A stretch of DNA of 64,000 nucleotides from Bacteroidales bacterium (GTDB lineage Bacteria > Bacteroidota > Bacteroidia > Bacteroidales > WCHB1-69): NCBI GenBank assembly GCA_024400785.1, contig JAKSME010000002.1, forward strand, positions 9,598 to 73,597. Direction: 5' to 3'. Of the stretch, positions 27,273 to 63,528 are shown piece after piece; within the stretch, counting starts at the first letter, position 1, and each line of letters opens with the position of its first letter. The translations under genes were made by a program, and so were the position numbers. The notes under the pieces are model-generated. The model saw nothing but the letters and a program-made list of their open reading frames with translations, was not told the DNA's origin and made no database searches.

Positions 27273-27345
27273 GCGGTAATAGCTCAGTTGGTAGAGCGGC
27301 AGCTTCCCAAGCTGCAGGTCGCGGGTTCGAGACCCGTTTACCGCT
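27273..27345 (+). tRNA. tRNA-Gly (anticodon CCC)
   Basis: Acceptor GCGGTAA/TTACCGC, D arm GCTC-AGTTGGTA-GAGC, anticodon stem GCAGC/GCTGC with loop TTCCCAA, T arm GCGGG-TTCGAGA-CCCGT, discriminator T. Confidence 0.95.
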
Positions 27346-27354
27346 CACAAAAAA

Positions 27355-27375
27355 GCCCGGGGCGTTGCCTCGGGC
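27355..27375 (+). terminator. hairpin terminator after tRNA-Gly
   Basis: GCCCGGGG-CGTTG-CCTCGGGC (8-bp stem with one G-U pair), followed by TTTACTTTT. Confidence 0.7.
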
Positions 27376-27396
27376 TTTACTTTTATCCATGCTTAA

Positions 27397-27440
27397 TTAC
27401 TTTCTCACACACTGCATGATGCTGTGCCCCAGTCCCAAAC
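27397..27440 (-). pseudogene. orphan 3' fragment (stop codon + last 13-14 codons) of an O-methyltransferase gene
   Basis: The minus strand reads ...LGLGHSIMQCVRK*, identical in protein to the C-terminus of the intact gene at 28789-29871 but with 4 synonymous differences. Homology ends at 27440 and no upstream coding sequence is attached. Confidence 0.6.
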
Positions 27441-27575: not shown

Positions 27576-27590
27576 GATGTGAATAATTTG

Positions 27591-27598
27591 TATTTTTG
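27591..27598 (+). promoter_or_regulatory. -7 promoter box TATTTTTG of fic
   Basis: TTGTATTTTTGCAC, 20 nt upstream of the ATG at 27618. Confidence 0.6.
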
Positions 27599-27617
27599 CA
27601 CTTTCAAAAAAAGGACT

Positions 27618-28733
27618 ATGAGAAATATATACATTTGGCAATCTCCCGAATGGCCAAACTTCACTTGGGATGAAACTGCCATAATAGAGCCGCTAATGAA
27701 AGTCAAACATTTTCAAGGGCAACTGATTGGAATGATGACAGCCCTTGGATTAGAGGTGCAGGCAGCGACTTCATTGGATATGGTAACAGACGACATCATC
27801 AAGTCGTGTGAAATCGAGGGTATGATTCTCAACTCACAAAGTGTGCATTCTTCTGTTGCGCGACATTTGGGAATTCCAACCGAAGGTTTGCCGGAAAGTG
27901 ATCATTACACCGAAGATCTTGTGCAAATTATGATTGATGCTGTTCAGCAGAGCCAAAAGCCCATGGATGCCGAGCGTTTGTTTGTTTGGCATTCAGCCAT
28001 GTTTCCAACCGGTAGAAGCGGATTGTATAGAATAACCGTTGGTAATTGGAGGCAAGGGGGAGAACCCATGCAAGTAGTGTCTGGGGCAATGGGACATGAA
28101 GTGGTACACTACGAAGCACCTGGTTCTGAAGCTGTTCCGCAAATGATGAATGATTTTCTAAGTTGGGTGGAGAATAAAGAAATAACTATCGATCCCATAT
28201 TAAAGGCAGGGATAGCACATTTATGGTTCGTCGCCATACATCCGTTTGATGATGGCAACGGACGTCTAACCCGCATCATTACCGATATGTTGATGGCTCG
28301 TGCGGATGGCTGGTCGCACAGATTTTACAGTATGTCGAAAACCATCTGCAAAAACAAAAAAGAGTATTACGCCATATTAGAAAAGACAACAGTAGGAAAT
28401 ACCGATATTACAGAATGGTTATTATGGTTTCTTGAAACATTACTCATTTCCATAAAAGACTCCATTAAAACTTCAGAAAAAACCATTCAGAAAATGCAAT
28501 TTTGGCAAAGACATCGGAATGTGCCGATGAATGAACGACAAGTGAAAATGGTCAATATCCTTTGGGATGGTTTTGAAGGCAACCTCACCAATGCGAAATG
28601 GGCAAAAATCACCAAAACCTCTTCATCAACGGCGCTGCGTGACATCCAGGAATTGGTTTCCCTTGGTGTTCTTGATGTAGCAGAAAGTGGTGGAAGAAGC
28701 ACACATTACATTCTTTCCATCGAAGACAAATAA
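27618..28733 (+). CDS. Fic family protein (class II, with N-terminal inhibitory motif and C-terminal wHTH-like domain)
   Basis: Core motif HPFDDGNGRLTR = HxFx(D/E)GNGRxxR. Upstream SCEIEG fits (S/T)xxxE(G/N). Start moved to the ATG at 27618 (MRNIYIWQ...), downstream of the promoter box. Confidence 0.9.
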   Translation: MRNIYIWQSPEWPNFTWDETAIIEPLMKVKHFQGQLIGMMTALGLEVQAATSLDMVTDDIIKSCEIEGMILNSQSVHSSVARHLGIPTEGLPESDHYTEDLVQIMIDAVQQSQKPMDAERLFVWHSAMFPTGRSGLYRITVGNWRQGGEPMQVVSGAMGHEVVHYEAPGSEAVPQMMNDFLSWVENKEITIDPILKAGIAHLWFVAIHPFDDGNGRLTRIITDMLMARADGWSHRFYSMSKTICKNKKEYYAILEKTTVGNTDITEWLLWFLETLLISIKDSIKTSEKTIQKMQFWQRHRNVPMNERQVKMVNILWDGFEGNLTNAKWAKITKTSSSTALRDIQELVSLGVLDVAESGGRSTHYILSIEDK

Positions 28734-28734
28734 T

Positions 28735-28832
28735 CTCACAAAAAAAGCCCGAGGTGCTGCCTCGGGCTTTACTTTTATCCATGCTTAATTACTTTCTCAC
28801 ACACTGCATAATGCTGTGGCCCAAGCCCAAAC
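28735..28832. repeat. right copy of the ~97-bp direct repeat
   Basis: Begins 1 nt after the fic stop codon. Contains the hairpin and the true 3' end of the methyltransferase gene. Confidence 0.9.
28747..28767. terminator. bidirectional hairpin terminator between convergent fic and methyltransferase genes
   Basis: GCCCGAGG-TGCTG-CCTCGGGC, a perfect 8-bp stem, flanked by A7 on the left and TTTACTTTT on the right. Confidence 0.7.
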
Positions 28833-32802: not shown

Positions 32803-33132
32803 ATGATAAATTTCGGTTATAGTATCGCGCCGACGCGAGTTGTAAACCTCGACAACTGCGATTTTGACAAATTGCAACAGTTGGAACGAATCGTTCCTTC
32901 TTTTAAAAGATGTATCAACTGTGGTGCCTGCACCGCCACTTGCAGCGCGCAACAGTTCACCCATTTCAATATCAGAAAAATCAAATCCTTATTTCAAGAA
33001 GCACAATATGAAAAGTTGGCCAAAGAGCTCGACAAGTGCATGTTGTGCGGCAAATGCACGCTGGTTTGTCCGCGCGGACTGAACCTGCGTCCCATCATTA
33101 TGAATATGAGGAAAATTCTCAATACAAAATAA
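32803..33132 (+). CDS. small HdrC-like 4Fe-4S dicluster protein
   Basis: CINCGACTATCS ... CMLCGKCTLVCP; 109 aa. Confidence 0.6.
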   Translation: MINFGYSIAPTRVVNLDNCDFDKLQQLERIVPSFKRCINCGACTATCSAQQFTHFNIRKIKSLFQEAQYEKLAKELDKCMLCGKCTLVCPRGLNLRPIIMNMRKILNTK

Positions 33133-33137
33133 TCGCC

Positions 33138-34919
33138 ATGGACAACTACTTTCATCCTTTTGTCATTCCGTTTGTATTGGGAGCCATATTTCTTTTTGGG
33201 ATCTGTATATGGAAATATGTACGTTGGTTCAAACATTTCGACCGCTTGCAACGGGCTGTCATCCGGAAAAACATTTTCTCCTGGAAATTCATTCCAGCGG
33301 TATGGGAAGTGATTCGCGAAGGACTTTTGCACATCCGCATTTCGCGTAAAAATCTGATACTTGGCTACATGCACCGGAGCATCGCTTTCGGTTGGGCTTT
33401 GCTCATCATCGTGGGTTTTGTAGAAAGTCGCCTAACGCCCACCATCGATGGCTCGCATCCGTTCTGGATGGCCATCTTCTACCGGTTCTTCTTCCATTCG
33501 CACGGCACCTTTGCTGGTGCCCATGTGCTGACCGCCATCATGGATTTTCTCTTGCTGTATGTGTTGTCGGGCATTCTGTTGGCAGTCATCAAGAAATGTT
33601 ATTCCAAGGCCTTAGGAATGAAAAAGGCCACCAAGCATGTTGTTTTCGACCGCTTTGCCAAGGCTTCCTTGTGGTGCATTTTCCCATTCCGACTGCTAAG
33701 TGAATCTCTCACTGCCTGCATTTATCACAACGGCGGATTTTTCACCCAATTCATCGGAAACCTCATCCCGACCGAATTTGCACTCACCTTTGAAATGACG
33801 TCATGGACGCTCTATTCTTTTGCGTTAGGCACCTTCTTCGTCTCGCTTCCATTCTCGCGCTACATGCATATTTTTACAGAAATGGTACTCATTTTCTTCC
33901 GGGAATGGGGCGTGCGCGAAAAACACGAACGCACCGGTTACACCATGTACGAACTGAGTGCCTGTTCGCGCTGCGGTATGTGCATCGACAACTGTCCGTT
34001 AAATAAAGAGCTGGGTATCAACAATGTACAGTCTGTTTATTTTCTAAGGGATTTGCGTTACAAAAAGAACAAACCAGAAATTGCCGACAACTGTTTGATG
34101 TGTGCACGCTGTGCCTCCGACTGTCCGGTGAATATTGACTTGATGGCCATCCGCCAACAGGAACGCAACAAACGGAATTTCGACACCGAGGGCAATTACC
34201 ACTATCTCGACAATGTTCAACCCTTCAATGCAATTGGACGTATCGGCTACTTCGGCGGGTGTATGTCGCACCTCACTCCCGGCATTACGGAATCAATGAA
34301 AACCATCTTCGAAGTCGCCGGACAGCGTTACTGGTTCATGGACGAAGACCGCTCCATCTGCTGCGGCCGTCCGCTGCTGCAACAAGGCTACAACCAACAA
34401 GCTGCCGAGTTGCGCCGCAAACTTACCGAACTGATAAAGAAGTCGAAAGTCACCATGCTGGTCACCTCCTGCCCCATCTGCTATCAAACTTTCAAAAAGG
34501 ATTACAAACTCAACATCCCGGTCATCCATCACACCGAATACCTCAACATGCTCATCAAGAGCGGCCTTATCAAAGTCCGCATGGACGATCTGAAAACCGT
34601 TTACCACGATCCGTGTGAGCTGGGAAGGGGTTGCGGCATTTACAAAGAGCCGCGTCAGGTATTGCAAGCCACCACGCATCTTGTCAAAGCCAAACAGGAA
34701 GGCGAAGACAGTTTGTGCTGCGGCATCAACCTGGGCGACACACTTATTGACATCAACCAGCAGAAAAAAATCCGCGATGCGGCAGTGGAAAACCTCATGC
34801 ACAGAAAACCCGACTTGATTGCCACCGCCTGTCCGATGTGCAAGAAAGCTTTTGTTCATTCCACTACGTTGCCGGTGAAAGATATTGCGGAGATTGTGAG
34901 GGAGAATCTGAGAAGTTAG
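33138..34919 (+). CDS. membrane-anchored (Fe-S)-binding protein: NarI/DsrM-like TM domain fused to an HdrD/DsrK-like domain
   Basis: Start at the ATG at 33138 (MDNYFHPF...). About 6 TM helices with conserved His (YMHRS, FHSHG, SRYMHIF). Then CSRCGMCIDNCP and CLMCARCASDCP, then two complete CCG domains (GGCMSH...ICCGRP...SCPICY; HDPCELGRGCG...LCCGIN...ACPMCK). Confidence 0.7.
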   Translation: MDNYFHPFVIPFVLGAIFLFGICIWKYVRWFKHFDRLQRAVIRKNIFSWKFIPAVWEVIREGLLHIRISRKNLILGYMHRSIAFGWALLIIVGFVESRLTPTIDGSHPFWMAIFYRFFFHSHGTFAGAHVLTAIMDFLLLYVLSGILLAVIKKCYSKALGMKKATKHVVFDRFAKASLWCIFPFRLLSESLTACIYHNGGFFTQFIGNLIPTEFALTFEMTSWTLYSFALGTFFVSLPFSRYMHIFTEMVLIFFREWGVREKHERTGYTMYELSACSRCGMCIDNCPLNKELGINNVQSVYFLRDLRYKKNKPEIADNCLMCARCASDCPVNIDLMAIRQQERNKRNFDTEGNYHYLDNVQPFNAIGRIGYFGGCMSHLTPGITESMKTIFEVAGQRYWFMDEDRSICCGRPLLQQGYNQQAAELRRKLTELIKKSKVTMLVTSCPICYQTFKKDYKLNIPVIHHTEYLNMLIKSGLIKVRMDDLKTVYHDPCELGRGCGIYKEPRQVLQATTHLVKAKQEGEDSLCCGINLGDTLIDINQQKKIRDAAVENLMHRKPDLIATACPMCKKAFVHSTTLPVKDIAEIVRENLRS

Positions 34920-34961
34920 TGGAAGGTTAGTGGAAGTTCGTGGAAAGGTGAAAGAGTGGAA
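34919..34961 (+). repeat. GTGGAA/GTGAAA hexamer array 1
   Basis: GTGGAA at 34919, 34930, 34940 and 34956; GTGAAA at 34948. Starts on the last base of the upstream stop codon and ends 27 nt before the next ATG. Confidence 0.85.
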
Positions 34962-34987
34962 ACGAGAAAAAATTAGAATAAAAAAAT

Positions 34988-36043
34988 ATGACAAAGAGAT
35001 TTTGGAACGAGTATCAGAAGGAGATTGCAGACGACCATTTTTTCTATGAAAGGAGCTGCATCCGGCAGACTTTTTTCCCAGGGTCGGAGACGGCGTTTTT
35101 GCGCATCATGCGTGAGGAATTGCACAAAGACATCCGTGATGAGGCGAACCAGCACACCTGCACCGGCATCGGTTATCACAGCGACTTTGTGCCGTTGGAA
35201 ACCACGATGACGGTGGTGGCCCGCCTGTTTTCTCTGATGACAGAAGCGGGTTATACCAACTACGTTCCCTCTTGTGTCACCTCCTTCGGCATTTTTTCAG
35301 AAATGTTAGAAATGTGGAAAGAAGACCCCGCACTGTTGGAACAGACCCGCCAATATCTGCGCAAGGCCACCGGCCGCGAGTTCGAGGTCCCCACCAATCT
35401 GGTACATCCTTCCGACATCATCTACAAATTCCGCGAGGAGTTGAAGCAGAACATGAAATACCAACTGGTGAACCGTTTTACGGGCAAACCGTTAAAGGTG
35501 GTGGAACATGTGGGCTGTCACTATGCCAAAATATTTCCAGAGCAAGGCATTGGCAAATCGGAATTTCCGCACGTTCTGGCCGGCATGATTGAATCGTGGG
35601 GCGGCGAAGTGGTCGACTACCCGGAACGCCGCCACTGCTGCGGCTTCGGCTTCCGACACTACTTGTTGCAAGAAAACCGCGGCTACTCTGTCGCCAACTC
35701 CAAAAAGAAGTTCGAATCCATGGAACCCTACGAACCCGACTTCATCGTTTGCAACTGCCCCGGATGTACCATGTTCATGGACAAATGGCAGTACACCATC
35801 GCGGAAATGGAAAATAAAACCTACGACCGCGACGGCTACGGAATCCCCGTGCTTACATACGAAGAAATGGCCGGTCTGCTCCTCGGCTACAACCCGTGGG
35901 AACTCGGTCTGCAAATTCACCAAGTACAGTCAGAAAAACTAATGGACAAGATTGGCATCAAGTACGACCCTGATGAGAAATATCGTGGAGTGAATGGAAA
36001 AATCCTTCCCAAACCGCACAAACCAAGTTTCTTGAAACAGTGA
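34988..36043 (+). CDS. HdrB-like CCG-domain protein
   Basis: 351 aa. Degenerate first CCG domain (CIRQ...HTCTGIG...SCVTSF) and a complete second one (GCHYAK...HCCGFGF...CNCPGC). Confidence 0.7.
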   Translation: MTKRFWNEYQKEIADDHFFYERSCIRQTFFPGSETAFLRIMREELHKDIRDEANQHTCTGIGYHSDFVPLETTMTVVARLFSLMTEAGYTNYVPSCVTSFGIFSEMLEMWKEDPALLEQTRQYLRKATGREFEVPTNLVHPSDIIYKFREELKQNMKYQLVNRFTGKPLKVVEHVGCHYAKIFPEQGIGKSEFPHVLAGMIESWGGEVVDYPERRHCCGFGFRHYLLQENRGYSVANSKKKFESMEPYEPDFIVCNCPGCTMFMDKWQYTIAEMENKTYDRDGYGIPVLTYEEMAGLLLGYNPWELGLQIHQVQSEKLMDKIGIKYDPDEKYRGVNGKILPKPHKPSFLKQ

Positions 36044-36046
36044 TTG

Positions 36047-36098
36047 GTGAAAACGTGGAAACGTGGAAACGTGGAATATTCCATCAACACAATTCCAC
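36047..36098 (+). repeat. GTGGAA/GTGAAA hexamer array 2 with terminal hairpin
   Basis: GTGAAA at 36047; GTGGAA at 36055, 36063 and 36071 (exact 8-nt period, ACGTGGAA x3). GTGGAAT (36071-77) pairs with ATTCCAC (36092-98), and TGGAATATTCCA is a palindrome. Lies between convergent genes. Confidence 0.85.
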
Positions 36099-36108
36099 CG
36101 CTGAATTA

Positions 36109-36649: not shown

Positions 36650-39607
36650 TTAATATTTGATGATTTTTTGAGTAAACTGAAGTTCGTTCTGGATAAGTTG
36701 GATGTAGTAAATTCCTGACTTTATACTTTCAAAATTGATTTTTGTTTCATTTTCCAAACAATTTTCGCTCCAAACCAGCTGACCATAGGCATTATATATG
36801 CGGATTTCTGTTTCAACCCCGGGAGCGAGCCCGCTGATGACACATTCGTTTTGCACCGGATTCGGATAAATGGAAATTTGTGAGGAAGCGGTTTCTTCAA
36901 CACCCACATTGCCCACGGTAATAATGTAATGAATGACGCTGTCGCAGCCATAAACGGTTTGATATTCCTTCTCCAGTGTGAAAATCCCTGCTTGGTCTGA
37001 ATAGAAATCGTAGTCACCCAATTGAACGTGTTCGCCGAGAGCAAGCGACAGATTGACAGTGTTTTCGTAACTCGGGTGGAGCGTAAGGTGAATGATGAGC
37101 GTGCTGTCTACACCACCGATGCCGGCCCCCGGATAATAGAAAGTATAATCACCGTCCATGGTCAACACTTCGCCTTCATAAACAAACGGAGAGCATTCTT
37201 CAAGCGTAAGGTCTCCAAATGCTTCATTGCCAGAAGTTACATAAAAGATATAATGTATAATGCTGTCGCAACCATTCACAGTAGTATAGATGCGGTCGTA
37301 GGCAAAAGTACCAACGGCAACGGCAATGTGCGGTTCGTCTTCTACATAATAAATATCACCCAAATTCACCGTATTGGCAACATTCAGGGAATATGACGGA
37401 TAAATGGTGAGGTGAAGGGTGAGAATGCTGTCGGCGTAGTTGGTGCCTTGCGCGGGATATTCGAAACTATAGTCTCCAGAAGCTGTAAAAGTCTCTCCTT
37501 CGTAGGTATAACTAACGCAGGATGCAGCATACAGGTCTGAATAAACGGGGGCGGCTGCCCTTACCACAACAATGTAATGAATGATGCTGTCGCAGCCATG
37601 AACCGACTGAAGGTTCACATCATACGTGAAAATTCCCGGAACGGAAGCCGTGTGAGAATCAGTGCCGATTTGGTAGGTGTCGCCAACAACGTAGGAATTG
37701 GAGTCGGTGACATAATAGGTTGGATGGATGGTAAGACTGAGCATGAGGATGCTGTCGTTGTAATTTTGAGCGGCATAGGGAAAGAAGAAGGAGTAACAGC
37801 CGGAGACAGTGAAGGTTTGTCCGTTGATGGTATACGAACCGCACGCCTCTACGCTCATGTTTTCAGTAACGGTGTCATGGTCCGCCAGAATCACGTAAAC
37901 GGTGACAGGAACGCGCTCGCTCACACAAGTTGCCTCGCCGCTGATGGCTTGTTCTTCCACGTAATAAGTGGTGGTTTGGGTGAGGACAGGCGTGGTGAAA
38001 GTGTTTCCCGTTGCCAGCGGTGTGGCGGCAGTGACAGAGGCATACCACTTGATGGTGCGAGTGGAGGTTGCCGTCAGTGTGGCGGTTGCGCCCATAGGAA
38101 TATGTTGGTCGGCTACCTGCGGAGCGGAAACGAGCGGCTGGAGTTGCACATCATGGCGCACACACGCTCCGTCGGTGGTGGTGACGGTGAAAGTCTGCGG
38201 CTCGTAGCAGTCGGCGGAAACTGTAACCGAGTATGTGCCGGCCTTGATGGGGCGATGGTAGTTGCCCACCGGCTGGTGCGAATAAACCTCGGAATTGAAA
38301 GTGTCGTGGTTGTTAACGAAAATTTTGGCTTCGACGGGTTCGCCGGTCACAGCATCGGTAACAATGCCGCGGAAACCGTACAAACACTCCTCAATGTAAC
38401 TGAGCAGCGCGACTTTGCTGTTGGTCCAATACGTAGGAAGTTCTGAAGTTGAAGTCACCACTTTGTCGAAATGCGCTTCGATGGTAACTTCGCGGCAATG
38501 TTGGTAGTAATTCATGTAGTCTTGGCGCGAACCGTCGATAACGTACCAATCGCCGCCCTCGGTTACTGCGCCGCAACCGGGCTGATAGGCAGTTTCACCC
38601 ACCATATAGCTGGCGTCAACTTCGTGACAGTGGTCCACGTAACCATGACAAATGTATTGGAACCAGTCGGCATCGGGATGGGCACGGTCGTCGGTTTCCC
38701 ACGAATCCCACGGATAGTTGGTCAATTCAGCCCCGCCGTGAAAATTGACAGACATCACAAAGTGTTTGTCAGCCACCCAGTTGATGACGGCCTGTGTTTC
38801 GGGTTGCACGTTGGCACTTCCGGAAATACCAGGAACGAAGGGATAGTTACGGTTCAAATCGACATTGTTGTAGTTGTAACGCTGGGAAGCCGAAGAACTG
38901 ATTTGCGTGTTGCTGCTTTTGTAAGTTCCGTCGGGATTTTCGAGCGGGCAGATGTAAAGGTCGACATTCTGGAGAATATTCTGTACCTGCGGGTCGGTAG
39001 TGGCGTTATTCAGGATGTAATTAATAAGTTGGAGCATCATGTAATAACCCACAACTTCGTCGCCGTGCATGGTAGAAGAATAGAAGAAAGCGGGTTTGTC
39101 GGCCGGCTGACCGAGGGTGGAACTGATATGGGCGGCAAGAAGCATGTGCGGACGAGTGGGGTTGGGCGTGGCCGCGAGGATGGTGTCGATTTTACAGATG
39201 TTCGGGAAATTGGTTTCAAAGGTATGCATCAACTGCACGTAAACATCGTATGCGGGATATTTGTTCCAATTGGCAGTGAAGTCGGAAAGGGTGGTTGACA
39301 CCATGCTGCTGCCGGGAGGGCGTTCGGGAGTGATAATTTCAAACGGCAGGTTTTGGGCGAGGAAGCTTTCATACTCGTGGCGGGCGAGGTAGACTTTTAC
39401 CTGATATTGGCCGCTACGGGCGTCGAAATGACAATTGTCGACTGAGAAATTTTTCGACAGCTGATTCACCTCTGCTTTGGTGTTGACCTGAGTATTCACA
39501 TATAGGAAATCCCTATCAGTATTTCGCAAATCGTCAGGCGTACTTTGGGCAAAAGTTGTCAGCAACACACCGAAACAAAAGAGAATGGAAAGGATGAGTT
39601 TTTTCAT
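36650..39607 (-). CDS. secreted M14 zinc carboxypeptidase with three tandem repeat domains and a T9SS C-terminal sorting domain
   Basis: Signal peptide; M14 motifs (SSTMHGDEVVG, DLNRNYP, NFHGGAE). Three ~107-aa repeats, each ending in (V/Y)(H/N)GCDS(I/V)IHYI. C-terminal ISIYPNPVQNE...GIYYIQL...QKIIKY matches the type A T9SS CTD. Confidence 0.8.
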   Translation of the reverse strand: MKKLILSILFCFGVLLTTFAQSTPDDLRNTDRDFLYVNTQVNTKAEVNQLSKNFSVDNCHFDARSGQYQVKVYLARHEYESFLAQNLPFEIITPERPPGSSMVSTTLSDFTANWNKYPAYDVYVQLMHTFETNFPNICKIDTILAATPNPTRPHMLLAAHISSTLGQPADKPAFFYSSTMHGDEVVGYYMMLQLINYILNNATTDPQVQNILQNVDLYICPLENPDGTYKSSNTQISSSASQRYNYNNVDLNRNYPFVPGISGSANVQPETQAVINWVADKHFVMSVNFHGGAELTNYPWDSWETDDRAHPDADWFQYICHGYVDHCHEVDASYMVGETAYQPGCGAVTEGGDWYVIDGSRQDYMNYYQHCREVTIEAHFDKVVTSTSELPTYWTNSKVALLSYIEECLYGFRGIVTDAVTGEPVEAKIFVNNHDTFNSEVYSHQPVGNYHRPIKAGTYSVTVSADCYEPQTFTVTTTDGACVRHDVQLQPLVSAPQVADQHIPMGATATLTATSTRTIKWYASVTAATPLATGNTFTTPVLTQTTTYYVEEQAISGEATCVSERVPVTVYVILADHDTVTENMSVEACGSYTINGQTFTVSGCYSFFFPYAAQNYNDSILMLSLTIHPTYYVTDSNSYVVGDTYQIGTDSHTASVPGIFTYDVNLQSVHGCDSIIHYIVVVRAAAPVYSDLYAASCVSYTYEGETFTASGDYSFEYPAQGTNYADSILTLHLTIYPSYSLNVANTVNLGDIYYVEDEPHIAVAVGTFAYDRIYTTVNGCDSIIHYIFYVTSGNEAFGDLTLEECSPFVYEGEVLTMDGDYTFYYPGAGIGGVDSTLIIHLTLHPSYENTVNLSLALGEHVQLGDYDFYSDQAGIFTLEKEYQTVYGCDSVIHYIITVGNVGVEETASSQISIYPNPVQNECVISGLAPGVETEIRIYNAYGQLVWSENCLENETKINFESIKSGIYYIQLIQNELQFTQKIIKY

Positions 39608-45615: not shown

Positions 45616-46563
45616 ATGGTTGAAATAATAAAAGAGTCGCTTTTACGTGCAGCCAAAACGGTTTGGATGCTGATGAAGGTGATGTTTCCGGTGGCGTTGG
45701 TCTTTCGCGGGCTGCAACTGTTAGGGTGGCTTCCCTACGTGGGCGACGCTCTCGCACCGCTCATGCACATCATGGGGCTTCCCGGGGAAATGGGGCTCGT
45801 GTGGGCCACCACTATGCTGGTGAACATTTACGGCGGACTGTTTGCCTACCTCTCGTTGCTGCCGACGCTGGCAGAGCCGCTCAGCGTGGCGCAAGTTACG
45901 GTGTTGGCGACCGTGTTGCTCATCGCACACACCTTTCCCGCCGAACTCACCGTAGCCACCAAGTGCGGCGTGCGCCTCTGGTTCGCTTTCGCCATCCGCT
46001 TCTTTATGGCCATTTTGTCGGGTTTCATCCTCAATTTGATATACAGCCACGGCGGATGGCTCGCCGAAGCATCCCACCCGCTGATTCACCTCAATTTGCA
46101 CGACTCCACGTGGGGACTCTGGCTGCTGAGCCAGCTCAAAAGTTTCGCACTCATCTTTGTGGTCGTCTTTTCCATGATTCTGTTGATTAAGGTGTTAGAG
46201 AAAATCAAAGTGCTGGACGGAATCAACAGAGTGCTGCATCCGTTGGTGAAATTCATGGGCATCGGTCGCGATGCCGTACCCGCGGTTGTGGTGGGCCTCA
46301 CGATGGGACTGGCCTACGGAGGCGGCATCATCATCGCGGAGGCCGAAGACAAGCACCTCACACCGCAGGATTTGCTCTACTCCATCGTCTTCTTGAGCTT
46401 GTGCCACAGTATCATCGAAGACTCGCTGCTGATGATTTCGTGTGGCGCGCACTACACGGGAGTTTTCCTCTTCCGCATTCTCTTCGCTCTGTTCTTCTGC
46501 TGGCTTTTCACCCCCATCACCCGGAAAACGGGGGTGAAATGGCTGGGGCGAGAAATAGGGTAA
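45616..46563 (+). CDS. polytopic membrane protein, nucleoside-recognition (Gate) domain-like
   Basis: 315 aa, ~8 TM helices. N-terminal VWMLMKVMFPVALVF...MGLPGEMGLVWATTMLVNIYGG resembles Gate-domain proteins (FeoB-C/SpmA-like). GC-rich, hence many shadow ORFs. Confidence 0.5.
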   Translation: MVEIIKESLLRAAKTVWMLMKVMFPVALVFRGLQLLGWLPYVGDALAPLMHIMGLPGEMGLVWATTMLVNIYGGLFAYLSLLPTLAEPLSVAQVTVLATVLLIAHTFPAELTVATKCGVRLWFAFAIRFFMAILSGFILNLIYSHGGWLAEASHPLIHLNLHDSTWGLWLLSQLKSFALIFVVVFSMILLIKVLEKIKVLDGINRVLHPLVKFMGIGRDAVPAVVVGLTMGLAYGGGIIIAEAEDKHLTPQDLLYSIVFLSLCHSIIEDSLLMISCGAHYTGVFLFRILFALFFCWLFTPITRKTGVKWLGREIG

Positions 46564-46613
46564 TGGTGGAATGGGTTAATGGTGGAATGGTGGAATGGGT
46601 GAAAGGGGGGGGG
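46563..46613 (+). repeat. GTGGAA/GTGAAA hexamer array 3 ending in a G9 tract
   Basis: ATGGTGGAATGG units. GTGGAA at 46566, 46582 and 46590; GTGAAA at 46599; G9 at 46605-46613. Starts at the upstream stop codon. Confidence 0.85.
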
Positions 46614-47551: not shown

Positions 47552-47650
47552 GGCATCATGAGCCGCCGTGTCGCTATTCCCGCTTAACCTAAACGACATT
47601 AAGAGGGATTCAGCCTTTTTCATTTTTTGTCATGTACTAAGCGTTCTATT

Positions 47651-49222
47651 ATGAAAAAGACCACCTTATTTCCTATCGTGATTTTTGTCATCATTTTAGT
47701 TTCCGTCACTTTAACGGGATGCAACAGACAGGATCCGAAAACATCCTCATTGAAAGTGGAGCGACAACATGTTTGTATCAATAATTATGAAGGTACTTAC
47801 AGTTTCGATGTTTCGGTCGATGTGCCTGTTTCCGGGCCGCAACAACTACGGGATTCCATTATGATCTTTCTGAACCACGAACTCTACCATGCGTTTGAAA
47901 ATGTCATTGACACTTCTTGTAATGAATCCAAATTGTTTCAATCCAAAGAAGTTTATGTTAAAGAACCGTACCTCACTTTGGATTCATATTCTAAAAAATA
48001 TGGAAACAGCGTCAAAAAACTGCTGAGCAACCACTACAATTTGAACATCTTCTTGGTAGCACAAACCAATTCTTTTATCACCTACGCTCTTGAATGGTAT
48101 CATTGTGGCGGTAGCTGCGGTTCAGAACTCCTTTGCTACACTTTCGACAAAAAGAACGGACATGTTCTCGATTCTATCGTAAAAGAAAAAATGCTTAGAC
48201 AATACCTCAAAAACTTACCAGAAAAAGAACAACCGTTTAAAGATAATCTCGTTTACTACGATAGTCCTAAACAGATTTTTGATTTTGCACTGATGGAGAA
48301 AGGGCTCCTTATTACCACCAATTTGGTCAACCACTATCAGGTTTTCCTTTTGGACTACAAAGATGTTTGGTCATACCTTACTCCAAAAGCCCAAGAACTG
48401 GTAGAGACAATGGGAGACAGCACTCAGAACAAATGGAGTGAAAACTTCGTCGGGGACCGGTTAGGAAGCGTCAAAACCATTGATGGGAATACCATCATCC
48501 TTACTCAAACACCAAGTCAACAAGATTTTATCGGCGATTTCTTCATGGATGATAGTAAGGACAAATATACATGGACCCATAAGGGAAATTTTTCCAGCTT
48601 GAGGGCATTTAACGCTAATAATGGTCAAGGATTCAATATTATTGATGATAGAACCATATTGTATGCAAATGACGATGAAATATGTACTTCCGCCCCTGAT
48701 AAAAGGGTATTCTCTTTCTCCCAGAAAAACAACACATTGTATATTCCAGTAAATTTAAGGGAAGCGATGGGATTTTCTACTTACTATGATAAATATGACA
48801 TTTACCAATTTAATGGGACTAATTTTGTTCATAAGGGTGAGGGCTGTGGGTATTGGCTGCACCCGAGTTTGCAAGATTTTACGAAAATGGTATTATATGG
48901 TGAATCAAGCCAATACATAGTAAGGGTAGACATGGTGGAAACTTCTAACGAAAATTATAACAGCATAGATGAAACAGAATCTAACAACACAAATTGTTAC
49001 CGTTATGCTGCTTGGAAGAAGAACAAAAGCACACTTGATGCTCCCGACCTGGTTATAAACAATGGTTATTATGATAAACAGAATAAATGTTTTGCATTTC
49101 GAAATAATGGATACGAGTATTTGGTCAACCCAGACAGTGAATACTTAACCATATTGCAAAACGGGAAACAACAAGAACAGATTCTCCTCAATAATATGGT
49201 CTACTGTTGGCGATCGGAATAA
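47651..49222 (+). CDS. hypothetical lipoprotein (DUF3298-like segment)
   Basis: Start at the ATG at 47651 gives MKKTTLFPIVIFVIILVSVTLTGC (lipobox). The internal ...ITYALEWYHCGGSCGSELLCYTFDKKNGHVL resembles the DUF3298/RsiV-type pattern (Y.GGAHG...fD..tG). AT-rich. Confidence 0.5.
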   Translation: MKKTTLFPIVIFVIILVSVTLTGCNRQDPKTSSLKVERQHVCINNYEGTYSFDVSVDVPVSGPQQLRDSIMIFLNHELYHAFENVIDTSCNESKLFQSKEVYVKEPYLTLDSYSKKYGNSVKKLLSNHYNLNIFLVAQTNSFITYALEWYHCGGSCGSELLCYTFDKKNGHVLDSIVKEKMLRQYLKNLPEKEQPFKDNLVYYDSPKQIFDFALMEKGLLITTNLVNHYQVFLLDYKDVWSYLTPKAQELVETMGDSTQNKWSENFVGDRLGSVKTIDGNTIILTQTPSQQDFIGDFFMDDSKDKYTWTHKGNFSSLRAFNANNGQGFNIIDDRTILYANDDEICTSAPDKRVFSFSQKNNTLYIPVNLREAMGFSTYYDKYDIYQFNGTNFVHKGEGCGYWLHPSLQDFTKMVLYGESSQYIVRVDMVETSNENYNSIDETESNNTNCYRYAAWKKNKSTLDAPDLVINNGYYDKQNKCFAFRNNGYEYLVNPDSEYLTILQNGKQQEQILLNNMVYCWRSE

Positions 49223-49356: not shown

Positions 49357-49376
49357 GGATAATTGCCATAAAAATC
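49357..49376. repeat. 20-bp direct repeat, copy 1 (GGATAATTGCCATAAAAATC)
   Basis: Identical to 49503-49522. Confidence 0.9.
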
Positions 49377-49417: not shown

Positions 49418-49489
49418 GTGGAAAGGGTGAAAGGTGGAAGGGTAAAATAAATAATTAACCCTTAATCCTTTCAACTCTTCACCTTTTTT
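49418..49489 (+). repeat. GTGGAA/GTGAAA hexamer array 4 forming the 5' arm of a long imperfect hairpin with a T-tail
   Basis: GTGGAA at 49418 and 49434; GTGAAA at 49427. AAGGGT (49438-43) pairs with ACCCTT (49458-63), and outer GGTGAAAGG pairs imperfectly with CCTTTCAACTCTTCACC. Followed by T6 (49483-88). Confidence 0.7.
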
Positions 49490-49502
49490 GCAAGATTAAA
49501 GG

Positions 49503-49522
49503 GGATAATTGCCATAAAAATC
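49503..49522. repeat. 20-bp direct repeat, copy 2
   Basis: GGATAATTGCCATAAAAATC, immediately upstream of the -7 box at 49525. Confidence 0.9.
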
Positions 49523-49524
49523 AG

Positions 49525-49552: not shown

Positions 49553-50953
49553 ATGAAAATAGACTTTTTAGGCGCTACCACCGAAGTTACTGGCAGTAAA
49601 TTTCTCCTGACCACAGTAAAGGGAGTGAAAATTTTATTGGATTGCGGAATGTATCAAGGCAAAGGTCTTGAAACCGACAGTATGAACCGCGATTTGGGCT
49701 TTGACCCGAAAGAGATAGACTTCATCATTCTTTCCCACGCACACATCGACCACTCCGGGCTAATTCCATATATTGTCAAATTGGGTTTCAAGGGCACTGT
49801 GTTTTGCACACCCGGCACGCGTGACCTTTGCGCCATCATGCTGCCCGACTCCGGCCGCATCCAAGAAACCGATACCGCGCAATTCAACAAAAAACGCGCT
49901 TTCCAAAAACTGCCTCCGGTAGAGCCCCTCTACACGATGAAAGATGCCGTCACCTGCATGCGCCGTTTCGTATCCGTACCTTACAACCATCCCTACGAAA
50001 TCACCAAAGGCTTCCAGGTGGAATTCATCAATACCGGACACATGCTCGGGAGCAGCGCCGTATACATCCATTATGCGGAAGGAAGAAAGAAGAGAACTCT
50101 CTGCTACACCGGCGACATCGGCCGTTACAACAAAACCATCCTACCCGACCCCGAAGCATTTCCTCAAGCCGACTACATCATCACCGAGTCGACGTATGGC
50201 GACCGCCTCCACACCACCATCGAAGAAGCGGAACACGACCTGATGATGGTAATCAAAGAGGCCTGTGCCCAGCGGAAAGGCAAACTAATCATCCCCTCCT
50301 TCGCCATCGGCCGCACACAAGAAATTGTATACGCTTTGCAAAATCTTGAAAACCAACATAATCTTCCCGATGTCGATATCTTCATCGACAGCCCGCTCGC
50401 AGTAGCCGCTACCGACGTTTTCCGTCTCCACACCGACTGTTTCAATGAAGAGCTGCAGGAATACATCAAAACCGACCCAGATCCGTTTGGATTCCAAAAG
50501 GTCCACTATATCCGCAGCATTTCCGATTCAAAGAAGCTGAACAGTTACAACAGACCGTGCATCATTATTTCCGCATCAGGGATGATGGAGGCCGGGCGCG
50601 TTAAGCACCACTTGGCCAACAATATCGAAAATCCGAAAACCACCATCTTGTGCGTCGGATACTGCTCTCCAACCACACTGGGGGCCAAAATCATGCGCGG
50701 CGACAGCGAAGTTTCCATCTTCGGAAGCAAATACAAAGTTCGCGCAACGCTGGCCAGAATAGAAGCATTTTCCGGCCATGCCGACTACAAAGAATTAATT
50801 CAATATCTTTCTTGTCAAAACAAGAAGAAAGTGAAAAATATTTTCATAGTTCATGGGGAAGATTCTTCACGCATTGCCTACTCACAGCACCTGAAAGATG
50901 CTGGTTTCAAGAACAATAGCGTGCCTAAGTTCCGTGAATCTGTGGAAATCTAA
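49553..50953 (+). CDS. MBL-fold metallo-hydrolase of the beta-CASP (RNA-metabolising) type
   Basis: 466 aa; HAHIDHSG zinc motif, ESTYGDR, and a C-terminal FSGHAD...VHGE pattern typical of beta-CASP nucleases. Confidence 0.85.
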   Translation: MKIDFLGATTEVTGSKFLLTTVKGVKILLDCGMYQGKGLETDSMNRDLGFDPKEIDFIILSHAHIDHSGLIPYIVKLGFKGTVFCTPGTRDLCAIMLPDSGRIQETDTAQFNKKRAFQKLPPVEPLYTMKDAVTCMRRFVSVPYNHPYEITKGFQVEFINTGHMLGSSAVYIHYAEGRKKRTLCYTGDIGRYNKTILPDPEAFPQADYIITESTYGDRLHTTIEEAEHDLMMVIKEACAQRKGKLIIPSFAIGRTQEIVYALQNLENQHNLPDVDIFIDSPLAVAATDVFRLHTDCFNEELQEYIKTDPDPFGFQKVHYIRSISDSKKLNSYNRPCIIISASGMMEAGRVKHHLANNIENPKTTILCVGYCSPTTLGAKIMRGDSEVSIFGSKYKVRATLARIEAFSGHADYKELIQYLSCQNKKKVKNIFIVHGEDSSRIAYSQHLKDAGFKNNSVPKFRESVEI

Positions 50954-60684: not shown

Positions 60685-63528
60685 TTACAACGTAGCTTTT
60701 TCTTCGTATTCTTCGTAACCTTCAATGATGTCTCCAACCTTGATATCATTGAAGTTTTCAATGTTCAAACCGCAGTCCTGACCAGAAACCACTTCCTTCA
60801 CATCATCCTTGAAACGACGCAAAGAACCCAGTTTTCCGGTGTAAATTACGATACCGTCGCGGATCAGGCGGACTTTGCTGCTACGCTGCAACTTGCCATC
60901 CAGCACAATACAACCTGCGACGTTGCCCACTTTCGAAATTCTGAAAACCTCCTTGACTTCGATGTTACAAATAACCTTTTCGCGGATTTGCGGTGCCAAC
61001 ATGCTTTCCATTGCGGACTTGATTTCTTCGATGGCATCGTAAATAATGGAGTAGGTACGAATATCAATTTGCTCTTTTTCAGCCAGTTTGCGTGCTCCGA
61101 TGGAAGGACGAACCTGGAAGGCAACGATAACGGCGTCGGAAGCTGATGCCAACATAACATCGCTTTCTGTTACCTGGCCGACCGACTTGTGAATTACATT
61201 CACCTGGATCTTTTCGGTAGAGAGTTTCATCAAAGAATCCGACAAAGCTTCTACAGAGCCGTCCACGTCGCCCTTAACGATGACATTAAGTTCTTTAAAG
61301 TCACCGATGGCGATACGGCGGCCGATTTCATCAAGGGTAATATGTTTCTGGGTACGCAAGCCCTGTTCACGCAGCAAACGTGCGCGCTTGGTGGCCGTGG
61401 TTCTGGCTTCCTGTTCAGAGTCACAAACCTTGAAGGTGTCGCCGGCCTGCGGGGCTCCGTCCAAACCGAGAAGCAGTACCGGAGATGCCGGTCCGACAGA
61501 CTTCACCGGTTGATTACGTTCATTGAACAGAGCTTTCACCTTGCCGTAACAACTTCCGGCCAAAATCGGGTCGCCAATTTTCAATGTACCGTTCTGTACC
61601 AACAATTTAGCCACATAGCCCTTACCTTTGTCGAGGGAAGACTCAATCACCGTGCCCACGCCGGGACGGTTCGGGTTGGCTTTCAGTTCAAGAAGTTCAG
61701 CTTCCAGCAACACTTTCTCCAACAGTTCGTTTACGTTGGTACCGTGTTTGGCGTCAATTTCTTGGCACTGATATTTTCCACCCCAGTCTTCCACCAGAAT
61801 ATTCATGTTTGCCAGGCCCTCGCGGATTTTTTCCGGGTTGGCGTGCGGTTTGTCAATCTTCGTGATGGCGAAAATCATCGGAACACCTGCTGCCTGAGCG
61901 TGGTTAATGGCTTCAACGGTTTGCGGCATGATGGAGTCGTCGGCAGCAATTACGATGATACACAAGTCGGTGATTTTGGCACCACGGGCACGCATAGCGG
62001 TAAATGCCTCGTGGCCGGGAGTATCCAAGAAAGTGATTTTACGGCCATCGGCGAGAGTTACCTCGTATGCGCCGATGTGCTGCGTAATACCGCCGGCCTC
62101 ACCGGCGATAACATTTGATTTGCGGATGTAGTCGAGGAGTGAAGTTTTACCGTGGTCAACGTGGCCCATAACGGTAATAATGGGGTGACGCGGTTGGAGA
62201 TTTTCGGGGGAATCCTCCTGGGAATCTTCTTTGTTTTCACCGTCATCAACGCTGACGAACTCGACTTCATAGTCAAATTCCTCTGCCAAAAGCGAGATTG
62301 TTTCTGCGCTCAAACGCTGGTTGATGGAGACGAACAAACCGACGGTCATACAGGTAGAGATAATCTTGGTAACCGGGATGTTCATAAGGGTGGCGAGTTC
62401 GTTTGCAGTAATGAACTCCGTCACTTTCAGCACTTTCTGTTGTGCCAATTCTGCCAATTCTGCCTGCATCATCTCTTCATGGATGTGCTGACGTTTTTCT
62501 CTTCTTCTCTTAGAAGATTTCGTTTTGCCCTGGGGTTCCAAACGCTGTTTGGTTTCCTTGATTTGGCGTTGGATATCTTCTTTGGAAATTTCGATTTTCG
62601 GTTCTACCTTTTTGGCAGGTCTGTGAGATTCGTTATTGGTTCCTGCGGCGGGAGCAGACTGGATTCTCTTTCTTTTTTTCTTACGGGTGGCATTGGCGTC
62701 AGCGGCTGTTTTTTCCTTATTTTCCTTAGCATCTTTATTACCGCTGCGTTTGCCTGTTTCTTTGAAGGCGGAAAGGTCGATTTTTCCAACGATGTTGGGA
62801 GCTTTCAGCTTTTCAACGACCAAGTCGACGTGTTCGGGTGCGTGTTCGGTGGTGGGTTCAGGTGCTGAAGTGGGTGTTTCAACCGCCGGTTCCGGGGTTT
62901 CGACCACGGGTTCGGGGAGTTTTTCTTCGGGCTTCGGCTCCGGTTTTTTCGGTTCGAGATCGATTTTGCCAACCACCTTGGGGGTATAGTTCTCCACATT
63001 GATTTCGATATGCTCGGGTTCGGGCTTGACCTCTTTCACGGGTTCGGGTTCGGCGACTGGTTCGGGGGCCGTTTCTTCCTTCACGGGTTCGGGTTCAACC
63101 ACGGGTTCCGGAACCGGTTCTTCCACCTTCGGAGCGGGTTTCTTCTTGGGTTCAAGGTCGATTTTACCGATGATTTTCGGCTTGCTGACTTCTACTTTGA
63201 TGGTTTCCTTTTCGATGGTATTCACCTTGATTTGAACCACTTCTGGCTCTTCTTCAACGGGTTGTTCCACCTTTTCAGGTTCGGTTTTGTTGGCCCCGGG
63301 CTTGTTGTATGAAAAGTCCATGTCCAACTTCTGAGATTCCTCTTTCACCTTTTTTTCACCACTCAGATGTTTGACCAACGTCTCATACATTTCAGCCGTC
63401 AGTTTCGCGTTGCGGTTATCTTCAATTTCCAGTCCCTTCTTTTTCAGAAGTTCCACAATGGTTCCGGTAGCAACGTTAAACTCTTTGGCGGCTGCGCCTA
63501 ATCTCGGTAATTTCTTTTCTTCACCCAT
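60685..63528 (-). CDS. infB: translation initiation factor IF-2
   Basis: 947 aa; G domain [24 protein letters not shown]; a P/E/K-rich N-terminal region with three (I/V)(I/V)GKIDL repeats. Confidence 0.97.

Follow-up and report, generated by a model that had tools for sequence, protein, structure and literature searches.

Intergenic GTGGAA arrays around an Hdr-like operon of a Bacteroidales bacterium are probably short octanucleotide simple-sequence repeats

Introduction

In a 64-kb stretch of a Bacteroidales genome (the window), the hexamers GTGGAA and GTGAAA are packed into the spacers on both sides of an HdrB-like gene and into two further spacers downstream. What kind of repeat are these arrays, and do they have the properties of a conserved regulatory element? 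An earlier note on this DNA described a repeat family lying on one strand and starting at stop codons, which might be a protein-binding platform, a processing or stability element, or the footprint of a small mobile repeat.

Dispersed, lineage-specific intergenic arrays of 7-nt tandem units are known from Cyanobacteria as STRR; phylum, unit and period differ from those of the arrays treated here. Long simple-sequence repeats (SSRs) with hepta- or octanucleotide units have been described in Cyanobacteria, Beggiatoaceae/Bacteroidetes, Xanthomonas and Geobacter (PMC4679880; PMC4692102; PMC2700814). As summarised in PMC4679880, Mrazek, Guo and Shah (2007) described prokaryotic long SSRs with units of 5-11 nt, among which heptamers are the commonest, and proposed that they originate by slippage. 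TAACTGA heptamers occur in marine Beggiatoaceae, Cyanobacteria and some Bacteroidetes (MacGregor, 2015; PMC4679880).

Results

A recount reproduced all array coordinates and hexamer numbers given before: four intergenic clusters on the plus strand contain 12 GTGGAA and 4 GTGAAA. With a cluster defined as at least three GTGRAA hexamers separated by gaps of at most 20 nt, the window holds four clusters compared to none in 100 shuffles, confirming that they exceed chance. The background expectation had been set too low, since dinucleotide shuffles of the window give about 43 GTGGAA on both strands and not about 32 (16 per strand); 72 are observed. Intergenic DNA makes up 5.9% of the window and holds all four arrays. 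They have a 6-nt core in common, comprise about 4-5 units each (given as 3-5 in a comparison below) with unit spacings from 7 to 16 nt, and contain four or more GG tracts apiece. Tandem Repeats Finder (TRF) reported periods of 10 (34912-34945), 8 (36047-36076, 95% matches), 8/16 (46554-46609) and 15 (49418-49447), the last corresponding to two units of 7-8 nt. This tandem simple-sequence nature, with a period of about 8, had been overlooked in the earlier note. A search of Rfam 15 returned only tRNAs at the gathering score, and at E ≤ 1 no match overlapped the arrays.

Array 1 (34912-34961, plus strand) lies in the 68-nt spacer between a 594-aa-type CCG/4Fe-4S gene and the HdrB-like gene. It consists of five units, GTGGAAGGTTA, GTGGAAGTTC, GTGGAAAG, GTGAAAGA and GTGGAAAC, with GTGGAA at 34919, 34930, 34940 and 34956 and GTGAAA at 34948. 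The first unit takes in the upstream stop codon: the G at 34919 is the final base of the TAG of ORF 33036..34919. Outside the repeat follows the A-rich leader of the HdrB-like gene, cgagaaaaaattagaataaaaaaat (34962-34987, plus strand), which is identical in a sister strain; Bacteroidota typically have A-rich leaders without a Shine-Dalgarno sequence. Array 3 (46554-46612, plus strand) is built from AATGGTGG and AATGGGTT units followed by GTGAAAGG and a G9 run, with GTGGAA at 46566, 46582 and 46590 and GTGAAA at 46599. Its period of 8 is overlaid by a higher-order period of 16 (TRF matches 46554-46609 and 46562-46598), and its first unit spans the last codons and the TAA of a Gate-domain gene. 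The RNAs of arrays 1 and 3 are both predicted to be unstructured (fold z = +0.4 and -1.5, respectively).

Array 2 is located between convergent genes. Its forward arm (36047-36076, plus strand; 3.8 copies, 95% matches) reads GTGAAAAC, twice GTGGAAAC and GTGGAA; it starts with GTGAAA at 36047, 3 nt past the TGA of the HdrB-like gene (36041-36043), and contains ACGTGGAA three times with a period of 8 (GTGGAA at 36055, 36063 and 36071). An inverted partner, ATTCCAT ... ATTCCAC, follows on the same strand at 36077-36098 and forms a hairpin with the forward arm, in which GTGGAAT at 36071 faces ATTCCAC at 36092-36098; the two arms meet in a 12-bp palindrome, TGGAATATTCCA (36072-36083). The predicted fold has -19.9 kcal/mol (z = -2.2), a value reached by 3 of 200 shuffles, and no U-tract follows the hairpin. 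Array 2 also marks a synteny breakpoint, the downstream gene being Pyr_redox_2, transketolase or a convergent deaminase depending on the lineage. Two contigs of the same species (L520 and L525) both terminate within array 2; short-read contigs of the species break there because the DNA is variable simple sequence.

The forward arm of array 4 (49418-49447, plus strand) is composed of GTGGAAAGG, GTGAAAG, GTGGAAGG and GTAAAA, with GTGGAA at 49418 and 49434 and GTGAAA at 49427. It forms a long hairpin with a degenerate inverted partner, CCCTTAATCCTTTCAACTCTTCACC, which is followed by TTTTTT (49459-49490, plus strand). The predicted fold is more stable than that of array 2 (-27.7 kcal/mol, z = -3.3; 2 of 200 shuffles as good), and with the U6 directly 3' of it array 4 has the stable stem-loop and U-tract of an intrinsic (Rho-independent) terminator. 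The hairpin was absent from the list of a simple terminator scan because its loop is long (21 nt). About 35 nt downstream of the hairpin lies a promoter-like TTG...TATCTTTG (49510-49534; families D2/D5). Hairpin, U6 and the position just upstream of the next promoter suggest that array 4 is probably the intrinsic terminator of gene 47627..49222; the array appears to have been co-opted for this predicted role. None of the three roles put forward in the earlier note gained support, and that of a processing or stability element is plausible only for the two arrays predicted to form hairpins, 2 and 4. Array 4 has an insertion-like appearance: the copies of a perfect 20-nt direct repeat, GGATAATTGCCATAAAAATC, flank it, the left one at 49357-49376 and the right one at 49503-49522 (both plus strand; 2 matches, 0.02 expected). 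The right copy overlaps the -33 region of the promoter of gene 49553..50953.

The regularities of strand and position inside the window are statistically weak. All four arrays are sense to the upstream gene, as claimed, but the orientation has a p value of only about 0.125, since co-directional spacers contain only three of them, and GTGGAA arrays in co-directional spacers of other genomes are sense in 25 and antisense in 23 cases (10 and 6 in Bacteroidota). A start at stop codons is borne out by the coordinates of arrays 1, 2 and 3 but is weak in relatives, where 18 of 39 arrays have a stop no more than 10 nt away compared to 14.1 expected from uniform placement in the spacer. That arrays begin at stop codons is largely explained by the very short spacers, most of which the array itself makes up.

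To follow the arrays between strains, we compared contigs of the same species, which covered arrays 1, 2 and 4; one array varied, in one contig. Array 1 has 7 units in contig L520 instead of the 5 in the window, with flanks that are 100% identical; the net gain of 14 nt corresponds to two extra GTGGAAAG units, a difference of whole units between close strains. Array 2 is identical in two contigs and array 4 in one (L527). At greater distance, 11 loci from relatives (L001-L005 and L514-L519), whose HdrB-like proteins are 82-91% identical, have spacers of 3-50 nt without an array before or after the gene. The arrays are missing from an operon that is otherwise conserved. The earlier note was right to see in them an intergenic repeat family that is non-random and specific to a lineage. 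Copy number also varies at an orthologous site: in four contigs, the spacer that precedes the Gate gene has AAGACCGT-type units in 4.6, 7.5, 8.6 or 11.6 copies, and four other contigs have none there. Where the window has array 3, other relatives carry six copies of ATGATTAG, six of AATGATT or 3.4 of TTAATGA.

The occurrence of such repeats was analyzed in 522 kb of DNA from Bacteroidales relatives, picked via a protein and not via repeats. Tandem repeats with at least three copies have a sharp peak at periods 7 (33 repeats) and 8 (18), compared to 1 and 3 repeats with periods 6 and 9. Many of these arrays reach from a stop codon to 0-10 nt before the next start, and in most related contigs the repeat unit changes between spacers. 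Among the additional 7-8-nt arrays of genomes that had been ascertained by a GTGGAA array, only about 17% belong to the GTGGAA type. Three tandem copies of GTGGAANN were found at 62 loci in viral contigs, where permuted controls gave at least 120 and 32; the GTGGAA core is not universally special. Where arrays form inverted pairs, the arrangement 5'-GTGGAA...TTCCAC-3' is strongly preferred (17 vs 2). Two Prevotella MAGs contain a unit of about 230 nt with inverted, outward-facing ends, AAATGTCTAAA(GTGGAAAA)3, and in some phage contigs (GTGGAACN)3 follows an AT-rich stretch at a conserved location. Intergenic repeats of 7-8 nt are common in Bacteroidales, Cloacimonadota, Poribacteria, Gemmatimonadota, Acidobacteriota, the PVC group and Cyanobacteria.

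Discussion

The four clusters are probably short, partly decayed octanucleotide SSRs with the core GTGGAANN, of the hepta-/octanucleotide long SSR class. Like members of this class they consist of head-to-tail units of 5-11 nt, cluster beyond chance, lie in non-coding DNA and are not conserved at orthologous sites. On this reading the arrays belong to an already described bacterial repeat class and are not a conserved regulatory element. They would gain and lose units by tandem duplication and deletion, through replication slippage or unequal recombination in tiny spacers. An array would extend from the upstream stop codon as far as the A-rich leader that precedes the following gene, and in arrays 1 and 3 the first unit even includes the stop codon. 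Transcription of arrays 1 and 3 would give a purine-rich, unstructured spacer RNA with little or no sequence-specific function, and arrays 2 and 4 may have become hairpins by gaining an inverted partial copy.

Independent slippage is insufficient to account for one core in four arrays. The likeliest source of the shared core is copying of array sequence between spacers, with weak selection on the unit as the alternative. Copying is favored, and arrays 1 and 4 have about 25 nt in common with the order kept, TTCGTGGAAAGG(G)TGAAAG(A)GTGGAA.

Comparison with known systems places the arrays close to several described repeats. With the long SSRs of Mrazek et al. (2007), as far as these are summarised in PMC4679880, they share tandem units of 7-8 nt, a mostly intergenic location and a patchy taxonomy, and the Bacteroidales relatives show the same 7/8 peak; the window arrays differ in being short (3-5 units) and partly decayed, in their period of 8 instead of 7, and in the dominance of one core over 64 kb. 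The TAACTGA repeats (PMC4679880) are likewise a genome-specific unit spread over many spacers, in sets of 2-6 copies that adjoin start or stop codons; there too, close relatives keep the neighborhood with shorter, repeat-free spacers, other heptamer arrays occur nearby in Bacteroidetes, and RNA-binding proteins have been proposed. The window arrays differ from them in their 8-nt unit, GTGGAANN, and in that they abut stop codons and two form hairpins, whereas most of the BOGUAY sets closely precede start codons. The GGGNATC arrays of Xanthomonas and Nostoc (Rehm et al., 2015; PMC4692102) resemble them in having G-rich sense-strand units less than 50 bp from stops, a preference for co-directional spacers and a copy number that varies, four units being the most frequent. 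Unit length and taxon differ, and the window unit has just a GG tract, making a putative G-quadruplex (G4) weak. The GTTGCTYN sites of Geobacter metallireducens (Aklujkar et al., 2009; PMC2700814), of another sequence, also consist of about four tandem octamers with degenerate outer units and often form inverted pairs on opposite strands, as in arrays 2 and 4; they keep a fixed distance to ISGme8/9, whereas no IS element was seen here. The size of about 4-5 units recalls the four-unit preference of the GGGNATC arrays (PMC4692102) and the Geobacter octamers (PMC2700814), and could indicate a size-constrained functional element.

A second explanation is that the arrays are a platform for an RNA-binding protein, of the RRM-1 type (RbpA/B/C), ribosomal protein S1 or a cold-shock protein, whose binding would modulate the flanking genes at the level of stability or translation. 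We consider this unlikely. It would fit the sense orientation of all four arrays, the predicted single-stranded state of arrays 1 and 3, and the presence of one core in all arrays beyond what slippage alone would give. An RNA with GUAGGAUA, a G/U/A-rich octamer, in three tandem copies was a ligand of B. thetaiotaomicron RbpB (KD of 5.1 uM), which a C/U-rich octamer was not (bioRxiv 10.1101/2021.04.27.441718), and for the TAACTGA repeats MacGregor suggested S1, Csp or CsrA (PMC4679880). The motif of RbpB only resembles the array unit, however (GUGGAAAN/GUGGAAAC as RNA), and binding of GUGGAA is putative. Against a platform also stand the absence of arrays from all relatives examined at 82-91% protein identity, in an operon that is otherwise conserved, the change in copy number from strain to strain, and the orientation data, which are weak within the window (p about 0.125) and without preference in other genomes (25 vs 23; Bacteroidota 10 vs 6). 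GGA motifs in series on one RNA are reminiscent of CsrB/RsmZ-type decoy RNAs; there, however, a dedicated small RNA presents the motifs in its hairpin loops. The window arrays have no Rfam match, and for Bacteroides a lack of CsrA is reported (PMC13370968).

It is quite unlikely that arrays of about four GTGGAA units, instead of being neutral slippage products, are a lineage-specific functional element, either a multivalent platform for an RRM-1-type protein that binds single-stranded RNA or the product of a dedicated, sequence-specific copying process bringing one octamer into many spacers. If true, such a process might explain the sharp 7-8-nt period peak and the inverted-pair preference of 17 vs 2.

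Also improbable is an origin as remnants or ends of a small non-autonomous MITE-like or REP-like element that inserts into spacers and has GTGGAA units as its termini or as the element itself. In line with such an element, array 4 and its inverted partner lie inside the perfect 20-nt direct repeat, arrays 2 and 4 are inverted-repeat hairpins, arrays 1 and 4 have about 25 nt in common with their order kept, and array 2 sits at a synteny breakpoint; the 230-nt unit of the Prevotella MAGs and the fixed distances between Geobacter octamer-repeat pairs and ISGme8/9 (PMC2700814) point in the same direction. But beyond the repeats the four sites share nothing with each other or in their flanks with the loci compared, so a conserved body with defined ends is missing, and a Pfam scan of 19 window proteins (27.6-53.2 kb) found no transposase, RAYT or other mobile gene. 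Arrays 1 and 3 have neither an inverted partner nor a flanking duplication, a target duplication of 20 nt is atypical, and what separates array 1 of L520 from that of the window is cleanly a matter of extra repeat units, not of an element present or absent. The mobile-repeat footprint suggested in the earlier note is not supported here, the direct repeat being its sole hint.

An action as DNA, either as direct-repeat sites for a regulator, nucleoid or replication protein or as non-B structures (G-quadruplex, GA-sheared) affecting transcription or replication, is very improbable. In its favor, G-rich heptamer arrays of GGGNATC adopt G4 in vitro, with a preference for four units (PMC4692102), Geobacter octamer arrays were annotated as putative global-regulator sites (PMC2700814), each window array has four or more GG tracts and some phage contigs keep (GTGGAACN)3 at a conserved spot. 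Against it, neighboring sites with an 8-bp period would face different sides of the helix, the spacing of units is uneven (7 to 16 nt), any G4 would by our estimate be weak and two-layered, built mostly from GG tracts with loops of 6 nt, and relatives lack the arrays.

For annotation, reading the arrays as octanucleotide SSRs calls for no new category: variable simple-sequence DNA forms the spacers of a conserved Hdr-like operon and its neighbors. To the few and scattered publications on 7-8-nt intergenic repeats, this case contributes array 1 as a clean polymorphic example within an operon. A stretch at 5939-5986, in a spacer flanked by two plus-strand genes, may be a decayed array whose related units are oriented the other way; read on the minus strand, it contains GATTGAAG, AATTGAAG, GAGTTGAAC and GAGGAAGT, a weak assignment made by eye.

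Tandem octanucleotide arrays between genes

Re-checking confirmed all coordinates of the four clusters described in the earlier note. A cluster was defined as at least three GTGRAA hexamers (GTGGAA or GTGAAA) with gaps of no more than 20 nt. Array 1 (34919-34961) lies upstream of the HdrB-like gene, in a conserved operon that encodes four Fe-S/CCG proteins, and array 2 (36047-36076, with inverted units on to 36098) is found just 3' of this operon. Arrays 3 (46566-46604) and 4 (49418-49439) flank two lineage-specific proteins, between the Gate-domain transporter and beta-CASP RNase genes. All four are on the plus strand, where they hold 12 GTGGAA and four GTGAAA hexamers. The claim that this clustering is beyond chance held, with four clusters in the window versus none in 100 shuffles, and so did the intergenic location: all four arrays lie in intergenic DNA, which makes up only 5.9% of the window. 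Across the window GTGGAA is in excess (72 observed on the two strands together versus 42.8 +/- 5.8 expected). The minus strand hexamer pairs at 11989/12001 and 61776/61789 sit within coding sequence and look like chance.

Tandem Repeats Finder reported all four clusters as tandem arrays. It gave a period of 8 for array 2 (36047-36076; 3.8 copies, 95% matches), periods of 8 and 16 for array 3 (46562-46598 and 46554-46609), a period of 10 narrowing to 8 in the 3' half for array 1 (34912-34945), and a period of 15, that is two units of 7-8 nt, for array 4 (49418-49447). Thus, what had been described as hexamers at a spacing of 7-11 nt is the octanucleotide unit GTGGAANN with degenerate copies at the array edges. 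The one GTGAAA found in each array differs from the unit by a G-to-A change; in other genomes, GTGAAA-type units often adjoin GTGGAA arrays (among the matches listed). A possible fifth, decayed array in opposite orientation is present at 5939-5986. Directly 3' of array 3 lies a G9 homopolymer (46604-46612), a tract type prone to slippage, which is outside the coverage of all same-species contigs fetched.

Position relative to stop codons and coding strand

The last 7-9 nt of the upstream gene are already in register with the repeat in arrays 1 and 3, and the stop codon thus falls within the first unit. At array 2, the ancestral gene end GAAACAGTGA was already similar to the unit, and relatives have AAAACAATAA there. 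Stop-codon anchoring was rejected as a special feature of the arrays: among arrays in relatives, 18 of 39 have a stop codon no more than 10 nt away, versus 14.1 expected for random placement within spacers. Arrays appear to begin at stop codons mostly because they themselves constitute the short spacers.

A restriction to the coding strand was rejected as a general rule, since GTGGAA arrays of other genomes occur in 25 sense/sense versus 23 antisense/antisense spacers, the remaining spacers being 12 convergent and 10 divergent, and Bacteroidota alone give 10 sense versus 6 antisense (all among the matches listed, with orientations resting on crude ORF calls that are least reliable in high-GC genomes). 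A purine-rich-on-sense-strand rule was unsupported for the 7-8-nt arrays of relatives (19 versus 12, p = 0.28).

Absence from relatives and variation between strains

The earlier view of a lineage-specific repeat family was right. The arrays flanking the HdrB-like gene are absent on both sides in 11 loci of relatives (L001-L005, L514-L519). The spacers in these loci are 3-50 nt long and repeat-free, and their HdrB-like proteins are 82-91% identical to that of the window, for which the top matches are 'Bacteroidales bacterium' MAGs with at most 91% identity. Taken with the promoter-like elements and the T9SS sorting-domain protein described below, these matches assign the window to an uncultured member of the Bacteroidales. 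When window 36044-36108 was compared with L001-L004 and L514-L519, the gene 3' of the HdrB-like gene proved to vary: most relatives have Pyr_redox_2 there, those of the 91% group have a transketolase (C-terminal subunit), and the window has a cytidine deaminase in convergent orientation. Since the downstream gene varies by lineage, array 2 sits exactly on a synteny breakpoint, and the operon end after the HdrB-like gene is a rearrangement hot spot.

No database record was found for the exact HdrB-like and Gate proteins of the window. Same-species contigs were reached via the deaminase, a 245-aa protein and the 109-aa ferredoxin next to the HdrB-like gene; this ferredoxin is present on five Logan contigs. 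Array 1 has seven units in the same-species contig L520 versus five in the window, with flanks identical base for base: the window reads ...GTGGAAGTTC GTGGAAAG GTGAAAGA... and L520 reads ...GTGGAAGG GTGGAAAG GTGGAAAG GTGGAAAG GTGAAAGA..., which adds 14 nt net. This strain difference is variable-number tandem repeat behaviour. Array 2 is unchanged in two same-species contigs and array 4 in one, which is identical over 435 nt; array 3 has zero coverage among the contigs fetched. Contigs L520 and L525 both terminate within array 2; assemblies frequently break at repeats.

Arrays of 7-8-nt units in Bacteroidales

Scanning metagenome contigs with the Gate-domain protein gave 62 loci with at most 66% identity, picked regardless of repeats, many of which come from long runs of related JGI sample numbers. 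Among tandem repeats with three or more copies in the 522 kb of these loci and five HdrB loci, there is a sharp peak at periods 7 (n=33) and 8 (n=18), and the neighbouring periods 6 (n=1) and 9 (n=3) are rare. The units are varied (AAAGGTA, TAAACAT, AAGACCGT, TTCTGCTT and ATGATTAG among others) and mostly differ between spacers of one contig. Many arrays occupy the entire spacer, from the stop codon to 0-10 nt before the next start. In the spacer upstream of the Gate gene, AAGACCGT-type units number 4.6, 7.5, 8.6 and 11.6 in four contigs, and no array was found in the orthologous spacer of four other contigs. Three relatives have arrays of other units, ATGATTAG x6, AATGATT x6 and TTAATGA x3.4, exactly where the window has array 3. 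The hepta-/octanucleotide array class is thus common in Bacteroidales. In L488:7867-10532 and L496:5240-6608, a AAGACCGT-type array is followed 50-80 nt on by a TTCTGCTT/TTCTCCTT array; this composite was found three times in about 3 kb, where the crude ORF caller gives one long ORF. It may represent an intergenic module present in several copies, or else a region that was misread.

Among described repeats, the arrays come closest to the 'long simple sequence repeat' class, whose units measure 5-11 nt (Mrazek et al., 2007, as presented in PMC4679880). The nearest cases within this class are TAACTGA heptamers, which occur in Beggiatoaceae, Cyanobacteria and Bacteroidetes (PMC4679880), the GGGNATC arrays of Xanthomonas and Nostoc (PMC4692102) and the Geobacter octamer and heptamer sites (PMC2700814). 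Every class property that could be tested was found in the window: tandem units, an excess above chance, non-coding location, copy-number variation (array 1) and no conservation in relatives. The arrays therefore belong to an already known, poorly understood kind of repeat.

The shared GTGGAA core

One genome per species was scanned with GTGGAANNGTGGAANNGTGGAA (GTGGAANN x3), which yielded at least 119 loci (L126-L244) from many phyla. Among the matches listed, most come from Bacteroidota, Cloacimonadota, Poribacteria, Gemmatimonadota, Acidobacteriota, PVC phyla and Cyanobacteria, and Pseudomonadota, Bacillota and Actinomycetota contribute very few; the matches are long arrays, often beside other 7-8-nt arrays. 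Permuted-octamer controls cover viral contigs, where GTGGAANN x3 occurs in 62 loci, GAGTGANN x3 in at least 120 and GGATAGNN x3 in 32. Octamer arrays are thus frequent there whatever their sequence, and GTGGAA was rejected as a universally special motif.

Within the window, one core is common to all four arrays, and arrays 1 and 4 have TTCGTGGAAAGG(G)TGAAAG(A)GTGGAA in common, in the same order. In genomes ascertained for a GTGGAA array, only about 17% of additional 7-8-nt arrays are of the same type (among the matches listed). Slippage does not explain the shared core. Core and order suggest that array sequence is copied between spacers or that the unit is under some selection. The literature describes the same puzzle for TAACTGA, which forms 169 sets in a single genome (PMC4679880), for GGGAATC (PMC4692102) and for GTTGCTYN (PMC2700814).

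GTGGAA arrays with an inverted partner no more than 300 nt away have the order 5'-GTGGAA...TTCCAC-3' in 17 cases versus two for the reverse (among the matches listed, L126-L244). An inverted repeat is identical on both strands, and the asymmetry is therefore not a strand effect. Both reverse-order pairs belong to a conserved unit of about 230 nt in two Prevotella MAGs (L220:124-349, L237:7075-7296). The centre of the unit, TATAATATTAATATA, is AT-rich, its inverted ends, AAATGTCTAAA(GTGGAAAA)3, face outward, and the outer flanks differ. A MITE-like element would fit, as would an origin-like region or a divergent regulatory region. In two groups of phage contigs, (GTGGAACN)3 or (GTGGAAAY)3-5 occupies a conserved position: after an AT-rich stretch in the first (L260, L269, L284, L288, L295, L298), and with a GT-rich tract on one side and a terminator-like hairpin on the other in the second (L245, L268, L271, L274, L276, L287, L290). 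These arrays may be iterons or regulator sites.

RNA-level, mobile and DNA-level readings

The functional readings of the arrays in the earlier note are unsupported. If the arrays were an RNA-binding platform, they would have a possible analogue in Bacteroides thetaiotaomicron, where RbpB binds three tandem GUAGGAUA octamers (bioRxiv 10.1101/2021.04.27.441718), a target resembling the array unit. At the RNA level, no structure is predicted for arrays 1 and 3 (z = +0.4 and -1.5); A-rich sequence follows both. For array 2 together with its pair of inverted units, the predicted fold has -19.9 kcal/mol (z = -2.2) and no U-tract. Array 4 and a degenerate inverted partner are predicted to form a long hairpin (-27.7 kcal/mol, z = -3.3) followed by UUUUUU; the promoter-like TTG...TATCTTTG belonging to gene 49553 lies about 35 nt further downstream. 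From this we infer that array 4 probably works as the terminator of gene 47627..49222. No known RNA family was recognised: Rfam gave no match on the arrays at gathering score or E <= 1. A scan for sigma-70-type promoters and terminators was uninformative on this Bacteroidota sequence, in which promoter-like TAnnTTTG elements recur upstream of genes (families D1, D2, D5).

An origin from a mobile element would agree with the perfect 20-nt direct repeat that brackets array 4, which is the sole insertion-like feature and is unchanged in the sister contig. No mobile-element genes were found among 19 proteins scanned around the arrays, and none of the fetched loci showed homology to the flanks of the arrays. 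Among DNA-level readings, ECF-sigma, sigma-54 and Chi-like sites were dropped by eye, spacing and partner elements being missing, and a G-quadruplex was judged weak from the sequence, with only GG tracts and long loops present.

Other repeats and proteins of the window

For the 531-aa neighbour protein, no relative was found in JGI metagenomes. A 92-nt direct repeat (27349-27440 and 28741-28832, 92% identical) that includes a terminator-like hairpin lies directly after tRNA-Gly (27273-27346) and brackets a single Fic/DOC-DUF4172 gene (27579..28733); this looks like a small cassette that was inserted beside the tRNA and whose attachment region was duplicated. Within a 947-aa gene on the minus strand (60685..63528), a 45-nt tandem repeat (two copies, 82%) and 21-22-nt repeats (63035-63124 and 62872-62922) probably encode a repetitive low-complexity protein segment. 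The window also encodes a protein with a T9SS sorting domain. In the M14 carboxypeptidase/T9SS-tail gene (36650..39607, minus strand), a 43-nt segment occurs three times between 36920 and 37610, and its 324-nt spacing suggests internally repeated domains of 108 aa.
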